NCBI GenBank assembly: GCA_037305845.1
Contig: CP147778.1
Location: forward strand, 736,001 to 800,000
DNA: 64,000 nucleotides
Source of the DNA: Candidatus Freyarchaeum deiterrae
GTDB lineage: Archaea > Asgardarchaeota > Jordiarchaeia > Jordiarchaeales > Jordiarchaeaceae
Direction of reading: 5' to 3'
Numbering within the stretch: the stretch's first letter is position 1; the number at the start of each line of letters is the position of its first letter. Shown one piece after another: positions 5,822 through 41,266 of the stretch. A model generated the notes under the pieces. It was not told the DNA's origin. It did not search any database and was given only the letters and a program-made list of their open reading frames with translations. A program made the translations under genes and the position numbers.

Positions 5822-6229
5822 ATGAAATTGACAATGTCTAAAAAGCAACCAGTAACCCCGCAAGCTTGGACGTACAATGCGAAGTATCTCGGGGGGCACG
5901 CTGCATTTGCCAAGGACGCTGTAGGTATACTTTACCTGTACCCAGGACCAGATTTCAAGGTTGTCTTTGAATCAAAGACAGTCAATATACAAATTCCCTT
6001 GAGCAGTGTAACAGATTCCAAGATCGTTACGGAGAAAGAACTCAGCGCAGCTCGAGTTTTTCTGGTGGGAATATTAGCTTTTGCCTGGAAAAAGAAGAAT
6101 AGGATGTTACTTGTCGAATTCAAAGATAACCTAGGCAGTACTCAAACCCCCGTCTTTGAACCACAAAAAGTAGATGAGGTTGCAAGCAAGCTATACGAGA
6201 TGAGACAACAGTTGAAAATGAAGTCCTAG
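5822..6229 (+). CDS. Hypothetical protein, probable PH-like fold
   Basis: KYLGGH start, beta-strand pattern, short hydrophobic hairpin (VFLVGILAFAWKKK), C-terminal helix. Confidence 0.65.
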   Translation: MKLTMSKKQPVTPQAWTYNAKYLGGHAAFAKDAVGILYLYPGPDFKVVFESKTVNIQIPLSSVTDSKIVTEKELSAARVFLVGILAFAWKKKNRMLLVEFKDNLGSTQTPVFEPQKVDEVASKLYEMRQQLKMKS

Positions 6230-6676
6230 GCGTTTCTGTGAATTGTTACTGACAGACAGAATTTTTACTTTAGCAATTAGGATAAAGAGATGTTTACGTA
6301 TAGCTACCTCATTTCTTTCAATTTTTTTCCTCTTTACGGCACCGTTTAGTATTGCTATCGCAGGAGGATTACTCTTTATCTCAATTCTGAGAGTGGATCT
6401 CATATCTGATTTAGGGTTTTAAACTTGAAACAGGAATAAGTTGAAGATTTTAATTATGTGGCTTTCCTCCGTCGATTTGAAGTTACTGGGTTTTGTTTCT
6501 TTTTTGGGGTTTAAATCGTGAAAGAAGCTAAGCCTCCTCTTTTGCGGAAAACAAACAATTACACATATCATATTGAGAAACTACATATTCACTACATTTT
6601 TATGATGAGGCTTAATTTTTGTTTGGGGAAATATATTTAAAAAATTATTGGCAGATATTACTCAGAGGCGGGAAAA

Positions 6677-7147
6677 TTGAGTACTAAAGACCCAAGAAAA
6701 ATTGACATTGAAAGGCTGATTCATCTCGTTGAGGCGAATCTAGGTAACTGGAAGCCGAGTTCTATTGTTATAGTGGATATTAATTTTAAAATCTGGGGTG
6801 AAAAGGGGGAGTTCCCCGAGAGCGCATTGAAATTCTACCGCAAATTCCCTTTCACGGAAATGCATGTGGGAGACACGGTGCACAACGAGAGTAGCTTCAT
6901 GATGAAGGTTACTGATAAAACGGCTGTACTAATCGGTATGCGGGATTCTCACATTGCGAGACTTTCTGCAACTAACCTGAGGGGTAGGATAAACGCCCTA
7001 TCAGAGTTCGTGATCCTGGAAGACTACATAGAAGAAAAAGGAAGTACTGAAGCAAGCGGAAAAAAAGAAAAGTTTAAAAAGATGGAAGATTCGTTGGACA
7101 AAATGGATGAAATGTTTAAGAACGCCGACAGACTTTTCCAAGATTGA
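6677..7147 (+). CDS. Hypothetical protein, paralog of the ORF at 63683-64000
   Basis: SD GAGG and TTG start; shares KIWGEKG, DSHI and NL.GR.NALS with the terminal ORF. Confidence 0.8.
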   Translation: MSTKDPRKIDIERLIHLVEANLGNWKPSSIVIVDINFKIWGEKGEFPESALKFYRKFPFTEMHVGDTVHNESSFMMKVTDKTAVLIGMRDSHIARLSATNLRGRINALSEFVILEDYIEEKGSTEASGKKEKFKKMEDSLDKMDEMFKNADRLFQD

Positions 7148-7216
7148 CAACAACAACTCGTATTATAGTGCAGTTTGGAAGAAAGCGGCAGAGGTTGAGG
7201 TTCTTTTTTGCTTTGA

Positions 7217-7909
7217 TTAGCGTGAGTATTGTATGAGGTAGCCTTCTATGTATTTTTTTACTTTGTCTGCGGGTTGGTAGACTCCGAAGTGTCCTTCGCA
7301 GAGTATGTCTGCTTTTAGGTTGATTAGCTTCTCCATGGATTCCCTGTACTGTTCGAGGTCTGCTCCCCATTCGGGTATGAGGGGTCCGTGAATGTCCTGT
7401 CCGAATAGGACGCGTTTTCCCTTTGTGTCCAGGACTATGGATATGCCGCCGGGGGTGTGTCCCGGGGTGTGTATTAGGTTGAATTCGAGGTTGCCGAATG
7501 TGAGTCTGGTTTCGGGCTGGGTTAGTTTTAGGTCAACGGTACATGGCTCTAGTTTTATGCCGTAGGATTTGGCTCCCGTTAGGAATTGTTCTCCTTTTTC
7601 TATGTCTTGGGCGTCTAACTCGTGGGCTATGACCTCACAGCCGTAGTTTCTTCTGAATTTTGCAGCAGCGCCTATGTGGTCTATGTGTTTGTGGGTGAGG
7701 ATTAGGGCTTGGAGGTTGGTGAGTTTGAAGCCGAGTGTTTCAGCGTTCTTAACGAGAAGGTTGAAGCTTGCTCCCGCTCCCGAGTCTATTAGAACGAGTT
7801 CTTCTCCTTTTCCGCAGTCTACTAGGTAAATGCTGCAGTCGGCGCTGTTTGTAAGGGACGAGCTTCCTAGAAGGTATACTCCGCCGTATATTTCGTAGGG
7901 TTTTTCCAA
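7217..7909 (-). CDS. MBL-fold metallo-hydrolase
   Basis: THKHIDHIG, TPGHTPG, LCEGH. Confidence 0.92.
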   Translation of the reverse strand: MEKPYEIYGGVYLLGSSSLTNSADCSIYLVDCGKGEELVLIDSGAGASFNLLVKNAETLGFKLTNLQALILTHKHIDHIGAAAKFRRNYGCEVIAHELDAQDIEKGEQFLTGAKSYGIKLEPCTVDLKLTQPETRLTFGNLEFNLIHTPGHTPGGISIVLDTKGKRVLFGQDIHGPLIPEWGADLEQYRESMEKLINLKADILCEGHFGVYQPADKVKKYIEGYLIQYSR

Positions 7910-8038
7910 TTTCGAAACCTCAAATACTAATATTAAGTTAAGTAAAAAAATACTTTAATTTTATTGAGTTTAAGAAAGGGGGAGAATAGTTTTTGTTAGT
8001 TTTATGGTTCGCTTTGTATATTGTTTTTTGGTGTTAGA

Positions 8039-8767
8039 TTATTTTTTGGATTTGGGTGAGATTTGTTTTACTGGTACTCCGGCCCATATGGTGTTCGGTG
8101 GGATTTTGGTGTCTCTTGGTACGAAGGAATATGCGGCGATAATTGCGCCTTCTCCTATCTCTGCTCCGGGGAATACGAGGGAGTTGACTCCTATTACTGC
8201 TCCGTCGCCGATTTTTATTTTTTTGAGGTACAGGTTGTCTTCTTCCGAAATGTGAGGTAATATTAATGAACCTGCTCCTCCTACTGAGCTTTTGCCCATT
8301 TCTACTAGGTAGGGGTCGGAAATCAGGTTTGCAGTGGCGCCTGGTCCCATTTTGCATTTTAAGAATTTGTAGACGCGTGTGTTGAAGAGGTATTGTCCTA
8401 GTGGGGGGTCTCCCATAAATTTTCTTGCGGAGCTGGTTAGCATCGCGTTTATCATCCAGTTTCTCACATTCTTGTTTTTCATATCAACCGGGTGAGTTCC
8501 CTCCTCGAGGGGTTTTAGCTGGGCTCTGGCTACAGCTAGAAATGTTAGGTTGAAAACCCATTTTGCTAGAATATAATAGAGCGGGGTTAACCCAAGCAGT
8601 AACCACATTGGTACTGGTAGATTAAAATAGTTAATAATGAAGTATGAAGCATACGAAAGTAGTACCGGGGGTATTAGGCTGATTACCCCAGAAAGTATAA
8701 TTGAACCAGCCAGTCTTCCCACCAGCCTGGGGGGCTTCCTCAATTTCTCTTTTTCAATCTTGTGCAT
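8039..8767 (-). CDS. Membrane-anchored hexapeptide-repeat (left-handed beta-helix) acyltransferase-like protein
   Basis: Two N-terminal TM helices; IKIGDGAVIGVNSLVFPGAEIGEGAIIAA...WAGVP. Confidence 0.8.
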   Translation of the reverse strand: MHKIEKEKLRKPPRLVGRLAGSIILSGVISLIPPVLLSYASYFIINYFNLPVPMWLLLGLTPLYYILAKWVFNLTFLAVARAQLKPLEEGTHPVDMKNKNVRNWMINAMLTSSARKFMGDPPLGQYLFNTRVYKFLKCKMGPGATANLISDPYLVEMGKSSVGGAGSLILPHISEEDNLYLKKIKIGDGAVIGVNSLVFPGAEIGEGAIIAAYSFVPRDTKIPPNTIWAGVPVKQISPKSKK

Positions 8768-38454: not shown

Positions 38455-39723
38455 ATGGCAGAGGAAAACTCGTTCCAAAATGTGTTGAATCAATTGGAAA
38501 AAACGGCTGAAATAATTAAACTTGATCCCAATATTCATAACTTTCTCAAAAGACCAGCGCGCTCATTGGAAGTATCCATACCAGTTAGGATGGATGATGG
38601 AAGCATTCAAGTTTTCGAAGGATACCGAGTACAATATAATTATGCACGTGGACCCTGTAAAGGAGGAATAAGATACCATCCCTCTGTGACTTTCGATGAG
38701 GTCAAAGCCTTAGCGGCACTAATGACTTGGAAATGCGCGGTTGTGGACATACCTTACGGCGGAGCCAAAGGAGGAGTTAAATGTGAAACCAAGGGGATGT
38801 CCGAGAGAGAATTGGAAAGACTAACTCGAAGATACACTTACATGATTATGCCAATTATAGGACCTGAAAAGGATATACCTGCGCCCGATATGTATACCGA
38901 CGAAAAGACCATGGCTTGGATGATGGACACTTATTCCATGATAACCGGGTACTCCGTGCCTGGAGTGGTGACAGGTAAACCTGTGGAACTGGGTGGGACT
39001 AAGGGTAGATCATATTCAACAGGTAAGGGAGTGATGTTCATAACCCGGAGAGCACTCGAATGCTACAATATACCTATAGAAGGTGCTACGATTGCTATCC
39101 AAGGTTTTGGAAAAGTAGGCTCATACGCAGCAGAGTTTCTGGCTGAAAAGGGATGTAAAATAGTCGGCGTCACAACTATGGATGGGGGCCTATTCAATCC
39201 AGATGGTTTGGACATACCTAAACTGTCAGAACATTATAGATTGGGGAAACCTTTTTCCGAATTTGATTATAAAAACACTGAATACGTATCAGATGTTGAT
39301 AAGGCGAATAAGCAGCTTATTAGTATGAACGTGGATGTACTGATCCCCGCTGCTATGGAGAATCAAATAACCCCTGAAAACGCAGGCGACATAGAAGCGA
39401 AGGTGATAGTGGAAGGCGCCAACGGTCCCACGACACCCAAAGCAGATGAAATCTTGATAGACCGCGGTATACCGGTGGTACCAGATATTCTAGCGAATGC
39501 CGGAGGCGTCATGGTCTCCTACTTCGAGTGGGTACAAGATCTACAAGCCTTCCTATGGACCGAGAAGGAAGTCAATGAAAGACTTAAAGATCTAATGCTC
39601 AAATCTTACGACGACGTGCTCGAGATTCAACAGAAAGAAAAAGTGGATCTACGAACCGCAGCGTACATCCTAGCAGTTAAACGAATAGCGAAGGCGATAG
39701 AGCTAAGAGGATTATTCCCGTAA
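38455..39723 (+). CDS. gdhA: Glutamate dehydrogenase
   Basis: GPCKGGIRYHP, PYGGAKGG, DIPAPD, QGFGKVG, EGANGP, NAGGV.VSYFEW. Confidence 0.95.
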   Translation: MAEENSFQNVLNQLEKTAEIIKLDPNIHNFLKRPARSLEVSIPVRMDDGSIQVFEGYRVQYNYARGPCKGGIRYHPSVTFDEVKALAALMTWKCAVVDIPYGGAKGGVKCETKGMSERELERLTRRYTYMIMPIIGPEKDIPAPDMYTDEKTMAWMMDTYSMITGYSVPGVVTGKPVELGGTKGRSYSTGKGVMFITRRALECYNIPIEGATIAIQGFGKVGSYAAEFLAEKGCKIVGVTTMDGGLFNPDGLDIPKLSEHYRLGKPFSEFDYKNTEYVSDVDKANKQLISMNVDVLIPAAMENQITPENAGDIEAKVIVEGANGPTTPKADEILIDRGIPVVPDILANAGGVMVSYFEWVQDLQAFLWTEKEVNERLKDLMLKSYDDVLEIQQKEKVDLRTAAYILAVKRIAKAIELRGLFP

Positions 39724-39979
39724 CCAATAATGAAAAAATTATTTTTCTAAATTTTTCTAATTTTTGGATTTGAAACGAATCCGAGTTTCGATAATGTCTA
39801 ACTGTAGAAATTCTATGAGGATGTTGTTCTAGGGTATACTTTCGATTTTTGTTTTTTCCTGAAGAGCTTTTATCTTTTTTATTTTTTTTATAGAAAAGGT
39901 TATATGTGGGAAGCTATTTGTATTGTTAGCGTTGGTGTACTTACTGCGAACAAGCGAAGTAACATAGAAATCAAAAGTA

Positions 39980-40336
39980 GTGATTAATGTGGACGTAACA
40001 GTAACAGAAAAAGCAAGAGAGTACATCGCCAAAGCGTCGGAATTAATTGCGAAGAATAACGGTAAACCAGCTATAGCCATATGGGCAGAAAGAATACACG
40101 CCTGAGGCGGAAGCAGAGTAGAGATAAACGTTGATGTATACACTGAAAAGGAAATTCTGGAAGCTGAAGGATTCGAAAGCAAAGGCAACCTAAATGGTAC
40201 CAATGTGCCACTCTACATTCAAAAAGCTGCTTACCCATTCCTTCCCGAAAAACTGAACGTCGAACAATCAGGGTCTATGTACAAAAGACTCTACCTAACC
40301 GATGTTTTTCCTGAACGCTGTGAAGGGCGATGTTAA
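39980..40336 (+). CDS. Probable HesB-like selenoprotein with in-frame UGA at 40103-40105
   Basis: Hand translation: (MIN)VDVTVTEKAREYIAKASELIAKNNGKPAIAIWAERIHA-U-GGSRVEINVDVY...VPLYIQK...FPERCEGRC-TAA; start GTG 39980 or 39989. Confidence 0.72.
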
Positions 40337-40341
40337 AACAC

Positions 40342-40415
40342 GGGGGTTGGAGATGACTCACATTCCAAAAAGTAGAGAATGTGGTAATCCGACGGAAAAG
40401 CGCCGTTAAATCCCC
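40342..40415 (+). promoter_or_regulatory. 3'-UTR structured element, candidate SECIS
   Basis: GGA-GAT-GA-C-TCACATTC-CAAAAAGTAGA-GAATGTGG-T-AA-TCC kink-turn hairpin; second hairpin GACGG/CCGTT; closing stem GGGGGTT/AATCCCC. Confidence 0.5.
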
Positions 40416-40471
40416 CTTAACCATTTCTCATGTAGGCATTCTATGTTAAATTGTAATGTTTAATGCTGTTT

Positions 40472-41266
40472 TTAGAGTATTAATTTTAGTGAGTCGTATC
40501 CAATTAGAATTTTTTCTCTGCTCGGATCCACTTTTTCCTGTAGCTTTTCATGGGGAGGATTCAAGTGTGCGAGATGAACCAGTACCGTCTTCTTGGCTTT
40601 CAGGTTATTTGATAGTTCTATTGCCTCGTTTACAGTCATATGGTGATTCAGAAAGTGAGACGGCCGGTCTATGAAAGCGTCGGTTATCAGGAGGTCGGGA
40701 TTTTTCATGATTCGAATGGATTCCTCTGGAATTCCTATTCCGGTGTCACTGGTAATTACCAACTTTTTGCCATTGATATTGAAACTATAGCCAATTGGCT
40801 GTATGGGTTTTTCCTCGTTCCAGCTGGGGTGATAGACCGGAAAGCCTTGAAACTGAATATTATGGTAGTCGACGGGTTCGAAGAGTTTTATCTCTGTGCG
40901 CTTCGCGTTAATTATTTTGAATCCCATTCTTTCCAGTACAAAATCCAGCGTTTCCTTTAATCCGAATACATGAATAAAATTCTGAACACGGTAAAATTCA
41001 CTGAACCCCAGAATATGATCAAAATGGTGGTGCGTGTAAAGAACCGCTGCGATTCTAGTTATTCTCTCCCTAATTAGTTGAGCTCTGAGATCAGGCCCGG
41101 TATCAATGGCGATATTCCTATCTTTCTCTGGATCGCGTATAAGTATTCCAAAACGAGTTCGAGCATTGGGAATACCCTGCTCCCTCGCTAGGGTACATGT
41201 CTCGCAGAAGCAATTAAATGTGGGAGTCCCAACGGTATCGCCGCTTCCCAGAATTATGATTTCCAA
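40472..41266 (-). CDS. PhnP-like MBL-fold phosphodiesterase
   Basis: LGSG...P..NCFCETC, DTGPDLR, THHHFDH, SDT, HLAH. Confidence 0.9.
   Translation of the reverse strand: MEIIILGSGDTVGTPTFNCFCETCTLAREQGIPNARTRFGILIRDPEKDRNIAIDTGPDLRAQLIRERITRIAAVLYTHHHFDHILGFSEFYRVQNFIHVFGLKETLDFVLERMGFKIINAKRTEIKLFEPVDYHNIQFQGFPVYHPSWNEEKPIQPIGYSFNINGKKLVITSDTGIGIPEESIRIMKNPDLLITDAFIDRPSHFLNHHMTVNEAIELSNNLKAKKTVLVHLAHLNPPHEKLQEKVDPSREKILIGYDSLKLIL

Follow-up and report, generated by a model that had tools for sequence, protein, structure and literature searches.

A three-armed candidate SECIS element follows a predicted IscA/HesB-fold selenoprotein gene in the Asgard archaeon Candidatus Freyarchaeum deiterrae

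The SECIS elements of Asgard archaea have been proposed as a bridge to the eukaryotic system. In the stretch of 64,000 nucleotides analysed here (Candidatus Freyarchaeum deiterrae, contig CP147778.1, positions 736,001 to 800,000; hereafter the window), a potential RNA structure begins five nucleotides (AACAC) past the TAA stop codon (40334-40336) of a small gene that carries an in-frame TGA. The locus raises the question of whether this RNA is a SECIS element that causes the TGA to be read as selenocysteine, and whether its branched shape belongs to this one gene or to Asgard SECIS elements more widely. From comparative sequence analysis and structure prediction, we consider it very probable that the element serves as SECIS for a gene encoding a selenoprotein of 118 aa with an IscA/HesB-like fold and that UGA 40103 is read as Sec. 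Positions without a prefix refer to the window, and those given as G000:C1 refer to the genome.

The open reading frame starts with GTG at position 39980, or alternatively with GTG at 39989, and is open to its TAA stop codon except for the single in-frame TGA. A homologue of this orphan gene, each with exactly one in-frame TGA, is present in all 11 genomes of the organism's class, Jordarchaeia. The TGA occupies the same alignment column in all ten intact orthologues (37-63% identity), and the eleventh copy is a decayed remnant. Both flanks of the column are conserved, the context in the intact orthologues being A-x-W-A-E-R-V-Y-S-U-[GR]-[GS]-S-R, and in nine of these ten proteins the terminal residue is Cys. 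Outside the class, one more homologue was found among 121 Asgard genomes sampled (G062:C97, L136:135-700). It belongs to another Asgard family and is distant (E 2e-9), carries Sec at the homologous place, and ends in ...GNC. Sec is encoded by every intact copy examined, those of Jordarchaeia as well as those of at least one further Asgard family. In public protein sets the gene is present only as translations in which TGA is rendered as W, or as fragments broken at the TGA.

Sequence comparisons give faint indications of what the protein might be. The sole match in an NCBIfam scan is NF041239, 'CC/Se motif family (seleno)protein', which scores 15 bits where the cut-off is 40, and PF01521 matches three of ten family members weakly (E 0.085). 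Several long database matches (P0006, P0007 and P0012) were rejected as spurious, as they are repeat proteins of the DUF285/LRR, TPR and YDG types. An AlphaFold model (pLDDT 86.5) predicts a confident single domain that runs across the TGA, and the best ten Foldseek matches in the PDB are IscA, SufA, DsrR, and related HesB-type proteins (probability 0.97-1.0, TM 0.45-0.63). The protein resembles the HesB-like selenoproteins (TIGR01911), which PMC13188914 lists and which have the motif UxGP, in being small, having a predicted IscA/HesB fold, and carrying one Sec. However, it differs from them in its own motif, U-[GR]-[GS]-S (here U-G-G-S), and in the conserved Cys as last residue, and neither the TIGR01911 model nor the UxGP motif finds a match in it in the NCBIfam scan. 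Taken together, the weak family signals, the fold matches in the PDB, and the missing TIGR01911 match indicate that the orphan gene represents a divergent, new selenoprotein family with a predicted IscA/HesB fold. This family is not among the seven Asgard selenoprotein families reported by Huang et al. 2024 (PMC11227280), which were found via homology to known selenoproteins. A search guided by SECIS elements can thus reveal selenoprotein families that homology-based surveys overlook.

The structure of the element consists of a closing stem (P1) that encloses two hairpins, one of K-turn type with a long upper stem (helix II) and a second, shorter one on its 3' side (P3). The coordinates of these parts are collected in Table 1. 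The 3-nt bulge GAU (40352-40354) overlaps the AUGA core, and the two following nucleotides, G40355 and A40356, are placed in G.A and A.A pairs with A40387 and A40386. Helix II begins with a C.U mismatch at its base (40357 with 40385), the only one in this stem, and continues as an 8-bp helix formed by TCACATTC (40358-40365) and GAATGTGG (40377-40384); one U.G pair is included. The three-way junction is both the minimum-energy and the centroid structure in RNAfold (-26 kcal/mol), and every structural part that the initial annotation had drawn is found in place, base for base. As a single sequence, the element folds modestly better than shuffled controls (z = -2.5, with 6 of 200 shuffles as stable). 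The element is the last part of its transcription unit and faces a convergent gene, which ends at 40472.

Table 1. Positions of the gene, the parts of the element, and the SECIS elements of other selenoprotein genes in the same genome
Feature	Position	Strand	Remarks
Selenoprotein gene, 118 aa, IscA/HesB-like fold (predicted)	39980-40336	+	Orthologues in class, predicted fold
Predicted Sec codon TGA, U42, motif IHA-U-GGSR	40103-40105	+	Column conserved across orthologues
P1 closing stem, 5' strand GGGGGUU	40342-40348	+	93.9% of cells paired; 2 of 5 modelled pairs changed on both sides
K-turn C-stem, 5' strand GGA	40349-40351	+	Pairs with UCC 40388-40390
SECIS core AUGA	40353-40356	+	T, G and A invariant; first base A or G
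Helix II, 5' strand, 9 positions	40357-40365	+	7 modelled pairs, 5 changed on both sides
Apical loop, 11 nt, A-rich, CAAAAAGTAGA (= CAAAAAGUAGA)	40366-40376	+	9 + 11 + 9 geometry as in published lokiSECIS
Helix II, 3' strand	40377-40385	+	Orthologue alignment
Core 3' half, AA in place of GA, with A at position 2n of the K-turn	40386-40387	+	Genus/family comparison
K-turn C-stem, 3' strand UCC	40388-40390	+	Orthologue alignment
P3 hairpin, GACGG 40391-40395 / CCGUU 40403-40407, 7-nt loop AAAAGCG	40391-40407	+	100% of cells paired, 2 pairs changed on both sides
P1 closing stem, 3' strand AAUCCCC	40409-40415	+	RNAfold and orthologue alignment
hdrA SECIS	G000:C1:1249442		Same architecture as element
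vhuD SECIS	G000:C1:1249971		vhuD stop UGA inside AUGA
hdrA-vhuD fusion SECIS	G000:C1 about 6000	minus	Four Sec codons in gene
selD SECIS	after G000:C1:2459003		Type II with apical ministem, same three-way junction

The orthologues provide stronger support for the fold than the single sequence. The 3' UTRs of the ten intact orthologues were aligned with MAFFT, unfitted to any structure (alignment A3). In this alignment 97.9% of the cells assigned to helices can pair, a share that drops to 48-58% once the 3' partners are shifted by 1-3 columns. Changes on both sides are seen in nine of the 19 pairs (five in helix II, two in P1, and two in P3), and RNAalifold predicts the same three-way junction from the orthologous 3' UTRs. 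The G-C and A-U pairs of the C-stem are invariant in the ten orthologues, and the P3 loop keeps the motif NNARGCR throughout. The core reads AUGA..AA in all six genomes of genus g1 and [AG]UGA..GA in all four intact copies from family f2; an A.A core is tolerated across a whole genus. P1 is the less constant arm, being weak or absent in one orthologue (genome G004) and in the vhuD SECIS of family f2. The distant homologue from outside the class is followed by a SECIS of its own, with 9 + 11 AUGA..GA geometry, the P3 loop AAUGCA, and a P1 of 8 bp.

The only decayed copy in the class, the remnant in genome G005 (G005:C56, L034:1411-1800), has lost the N-terminal half of the gene together with the Sec motif. 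In addition, a Trp codon has changed to a TGA stop, and the terminal Cys has gone. The RNA has suffered deletion of helix II and of the apical loop but retains AUGA, P3, and P1. By sequence comparison, gene and signal have decayed jointly in this genome. As P1 and P3 survive where the hairpin is lost, the arms and the hairpin are separable units, an observation that neither supports nor excludes a role of the arms in recoding.

A standard K-turn consists of a C-stem and a 3-nt bulge followed by a G.A pair (1b.1n) and an A.G pair (2b.2n). The element has the first three of these, with GGA/UCC as C-stem and GAU as bulge followed by the G.A pair, but the A at position 2n gives A.A in place of the second pair. 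By its sequence the element would thus be a non-standard K-turn, and its geometry is predicted to be kinked. A parallel exists in Kt-23 of Thelohania solenopsae, which also carries A at 2n, and hence A.A at 2b.2n, preceded by a bulge of 3 nt and a G.A pair; it is still kinked and is bound by archaeal L7Ae (Huang and Lilley 2014, PMC3985660). Kt-23 is a ribosomal K-turn without relation to recoding, unlike the element, and by analogy the A at 2n appears compatible with a kinked fold and with L7Ae binding. The branched shape further recalls the k-junction of the TPP riboswitch (Wang et al. 2014, PMC4005666), in which a K-turn has been elaborated to form a three-way helical junction. We note this as a likeness of form only; the third helix of the k-junction directly replaces or extends the C helix, whereas in the element a C-stem of 2-3 bp lies between the kink and the branch point.

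Among known SECIS elements, those of Lokiarchaeota are the closest in form. The lokiSECIS described by Mariotti et al. 2016 (PMC4989117) has AUGA, a stem of nine positions, an 11-nt A-rich loop, and GA, or AA in vhuU. The element likewise lies directly 3' of the stop codon of a gene with a conserved in-frame UGA, as lokiSECIS do, and has AUGA, an upper stem of nine positions, an A-rich loop of 11 nt, and the AA variant. Unlike the lokiSECIS, it serves a gene family outside the Asgard selenoproteome published so far. The loops also differ slightly. The rule given for lokiSECIS (PMC4989117) is that the first five nucleotides are A-rich and that the last position is G, usually preceded by A, so that the lokiSECIS loop ends in AG. 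Here loop positions 2-6 are A and the loop ends in AGA, with the AG one position early; counting C40366/A40376 as a closing non-pair gives AAAAAGUAG, which fits the rule.

The element also matches the type I eSECIS-like descriptor of PMC11227280 in all respects. It has the core 5'-GA ... [G/A]A-3' in the form of AUGA 40353-40356 and AA 40386-40387, an upper stem of nine positions with one mismatch where the descriptor allows 7-15 bp with at most two, and an apical loop of 11 nt without ministem where it allows 8-20 nt. Current Asgard models therefore catch the core of the element, and the element as a whole belongs to a family already known, that of the type I eSECIS-like elements (lokiSECIS) of Asgard archaea. 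The initial annotation had called AUGA..AA non-canonical. The core is nothing new, however; it has been published for Loki vhuU (PMC4989117) and, from Lokiarchaeia/Helarchaeales and Sifarchaeia/Borrarchaeales, for hdrA/frhD and frhA (PMC11227280). It occurs in ten of the 46 Asgard SECIS that we collected. Together with the precedent of Kt-23, these cases identify the AA core as a known natural variant.

The same annotation had suspected that current models might miss the architecture, and this is correct for the arms and for Rfam, if not for the core. No SECIS or other relevant Rfam family was detected at E <= 10 in positions 39700-40700, nor at gathering score in the whole window. P1 and P3 are absent from the main-text descriptions in PMC4989117, PMC11227280, and a 2026 review, which present a hairpin and, beyond it, no more than a lower stem and an internal loop; figures or supplements of these papers might show the arms. 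A full-text literature search for 'SECIS' with 'three-way junction' returned nothing relevant. Eukaryotic SECIS form 1 (RF00031) shares with the element the location in the 3' UTR, the AUGA, the K-turn-type core, the unpaired apical adenines, and a lower helix, which here would be P1. In contrast to RF00031, the element has a shorter helix II, AA in place of GA, and a hairpin inserted on the 3' side of the internal loop, and its genome has no SBP2 homologue. The hallmark of euryarchaeal (Methanococcales) SECIS, GC-rich stems split by an invariant GAA / A bulge, is missing from the fold.

The branched architecture is not restricted to the orphan gene. By inspection and folding, the SECIS of hdrA, vhuD, an hdrA-vhuD fusion, and selD in the same genome all have a closing stem, a K-turn hairpin with a helix of nine positions, and a 3' hairpin with a loop containing GCR. 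A closing stem and a second hairpin also lie behind vhuD in the other Asgard families sampled, including Loki-type elements with 9 + 11 geometry. P3 is found at a fixed short distance 3' of the core behind the orphan gene, hdrA, vhuD, and selD, and in several Asgard families; its stems vary in sequence, yet 97.8-100% of their cells are paired, and the loop recurrently contains GCR. The proposal that the same fold would recur at other selenoprotein genes of this genome is thus borne out, and the accompanying idea of a lineage-specific architecture is not, as the extra arm is shared with other genes and other Asgard families. The extra arms, seen in nearly all of the Asgard SECIS that we examined, are a conserved part of such elements generally, undescribed in the main texts of the key papers, and the published hairpin is just part of a conserved, covarying RNA with three arms.

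The hdrA-vhuD fusion gene (G000:C1:about 5923-8430, minus strand) is terminated by the UGA of its own SECIS AUGA motif, and the separate vhuD gene (1249558-1249974) ends in the same manner. Separate SECIS elements, some 530 nt from each other, belong to hdrA and to this adjacent vhuD. In Lokiarchaeota a single SECIS is reported to be shared by the pair (PMC4989117).

Searches for the architecture were conducted with covariance models. Our own descriptor scans (AUGA-stem-loop-[GA]A, either alone or combined with P3 and P1) returned between 844 and 5864 K-turn-like matches in the genome, and 22% of decoys passed a loose test for P3 and P1; because of this looseness the scans were dropped in favour of covariance models. 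In minimum-energy folds, the three-way junction is present in 28 of 47 real SECIS versus 58 of 800 K-turn-like decoys from this genome. A model built solely from the 3' UTRs of the orphan gene (R1) recognised vhuD SECIS over their full length, directly after Sec-type vhuD genes. Across 24 kb of such loci, eight matches reached 14 bits or more. In 98.8 kb around 30 Cys-type vhuD genes, the same model found nothing but one partial match of 10.6 bits. The fold therefore does not follow the Cys-type paralogues, an outcome that could have gone against the initial proposal.

A second model (R2) identified exactly one full-length element per locus in 40 of 41 Sec-type vhuD loci, which came from three Asgard families besides Jordarchaeia as well as from Jordarchaeia itself. 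In the closed genome of 3.58 Mb, R2 yielded four matches among the 150 first-look candidates scored, three of which adjoin intact Sec genes. The fourth (25.7 bits) was outside the training set and is a three-way-junction SECIS behind a broken vhuD remnant (G000:C1:2752892-2753245, minus strand), in which TGA, TAG, and TAA lie within the match. Genome-wide, R1 and R2 missed the SECIS of hdrA and selD, and since only these 150 candidates are scored, the list of SECIS for this genome is a lower bound. Across the Cys-type loci searched with R1 and the genome searched with R2, this type of element was seen solely behind UGA-containing genes.

A third model (R3) was built from the SECIS of 40 vhuD and hdrA-vhuD genes (alignment A8). 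This alignment holds no member of the orphan family, though it was made with R2, which had seen that family. R3 matches the element over its full length (model positions 1-93) at 42.7 bits with an E-value of 1.7e-11, which is rough owing to short calibration. The element is the sole significant match of R3 in the 64-kb window, the next best reaching 12.3 bits. In alignments A7 and A8, 95.9-97.1% of the cells are paired, a figure favoured by the fact that both alignments follow the structure of the model. Of the 40 SECIS aligned in this fitted manner, 17 have gaps in the outer P1 pairs.

These results bear on two readings under which the element would not be a SECIS. One is that the fold arises by chance, the TGA being a true stop between two small ORFs or the mark of a pseudogene. 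The modest single-sequence z score and the fact that gene callers split or miss the gene would agree with this. However, the TGA column and its flanks are conserved in the ten intact orthologues, with a distant relative carrying TGA at the same place, the helices show compensatory changes, the frame is kept open across the TGA in the orthologues, and the predicted fold is a confident single domain across it; we attach next to no weight to a chance fold. The other reading is that the element is a K-turn RNA of another kind, for instance a regulatory element bound by L7Ae or an sRNA similar to box C/D, whose position after the gene is fortuitous. Many archaeal RNAs contain K-turns of the L7Ae type, and apart from one mismatch AGAUGA looks like a C box (RUGAUGA). 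Yet no D box (CUGA) is seen on the 3' side, and neither a snoRNA nor another Rfam family was detected here. The restriction to UGA-containing genes and the full-length match to R3, a model made from the SECIS of other genes, likewise make this reading very improbable. What was first suggested, a SECIS that resembles those of eukaryotes, is of K-turn type, and lies in the 3' UTR of a gene with an in-frame UGA, is instead backed by the covariation, the matches of R1 and R3, and the conserved TGA.

If the element is a SECIS, the machinery to read it appears to be at hand. The Sec pathway in this genome is complete and of archaeal/eukaryotic type. PSTK, aSelB (PF21440), SepSecS, and tRNA-Sec(UCA) are encoded in a cluster at G000:C1:801760-811668, about 2-12 kb to the right of the window, which also contains a PurM-fold gene and three ORFs without a Pfam match. 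The PSTK, aSelB (G000:C1:806634-808031), and SepSecS genes lie 2-10 kb beyond the window's right edge, and selD, elsewhere in the genome, itself carries Sec. The tRNA-Sec gene (G000:C1:810418-810533, minus strand) has the anticodon UCA in the loop CUUCAAA and an insert of 34 nt in the D-arm, owing to which RF01852 detects it at 27 bits, below the gathering score. ARAGORN finds no tRNA-Sec in the complete 3.58-Mb genome and reports nine tRNA genes, or 17 with introns allowed; the majority of the tRNA genes must be arranged unusually or carry introns of an unusual kind. No SBP2 was found, and a search with PF01248 yields just two small genes of the L7Ae family, L7Ae and one further member, with open frames of 123 and 114 aa. 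The absence of SBP2 agrees with PMC4989117.

Recoding could then proceed as follows. After transcription, the 3' UTR would fold into a K-turn hairpin set in a three-way junction with P1 and P3, the latter exposing its GCR loop. The GGA/UCC stem, the GAU bulge, and the G.A and A.A pairs would form the K-turn. The folded element, about 250 nt 3' of UGA 40103, would recruit aSelB with Sec-tRNA(UCA) to the ribosome that has reached this codon, either directly or through a K-turn-binding protein, and the UGA would then be decoded as selenocysteine rather than as a stop. The junction may pre-organise the kink, and a specific contact, if there is one, would most obviously be sought in the conserved GCR loop of P3. 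The same loop is a well-defined site for mutations aimed at identifying the archaeal SECIS reader.

The role of P1 and P3 is less clear than the identity of the element. It is plausible that they participate in recoding beyond stabilising the fold, and a more specific arrangement can be envisaged in which the element is read in two parts. The K-turn hairpin would be a eukaryote-like core, the P3 hairpin with its G-Y-R loop would be a docking site for an archaeal SECIS reader (domain IV of aSelB or a dedicated factor), and the junction would pre-organise the kink so that even the A.A core works; separately, the gene would found a new selenoprotein family of IscA/HesB fold. As a joint proposal this is tentative, and we would sooner doubt it than rely on it. 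If true, eukaryotic SECIS would have derived from a branched ancestor whose arm was lost when SBP2 took over. Alternatively, the K-turn hairpin alone may be the SECIS, with P1 and P3 as passengers, either a scaffold or a structure related to 3'-end stabilisation or termination, without a specific role in Sec insertion. This would suit the position at the end of the transcription unit opposite the convergent gene, the weak, missing, or gapped P1 in some sequences noted above, and the recovery of Asgard SECIS by published descriptors without the arms. Against it, P3 is kept at a fixed distance, with pairing maintained and GCR recurring in the loop, in unrelated selenoprotein genes and several Asgard families, and nothing comparable lies behind the Cys-type vhuD paralogues; we regard passenger arms as unlikely, if worth serious consideration.

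The selD gene of this genome (G000:C1:2457992, 2458247, 2459003) has a further peculiarity, in that it contains a conserved in-frame UAA in addition to its Sec UGA. This UAA terminates an insert of roughly 27-30 nt with a covarying hairpin, which is seen in eight of the ten selD genes of the class.
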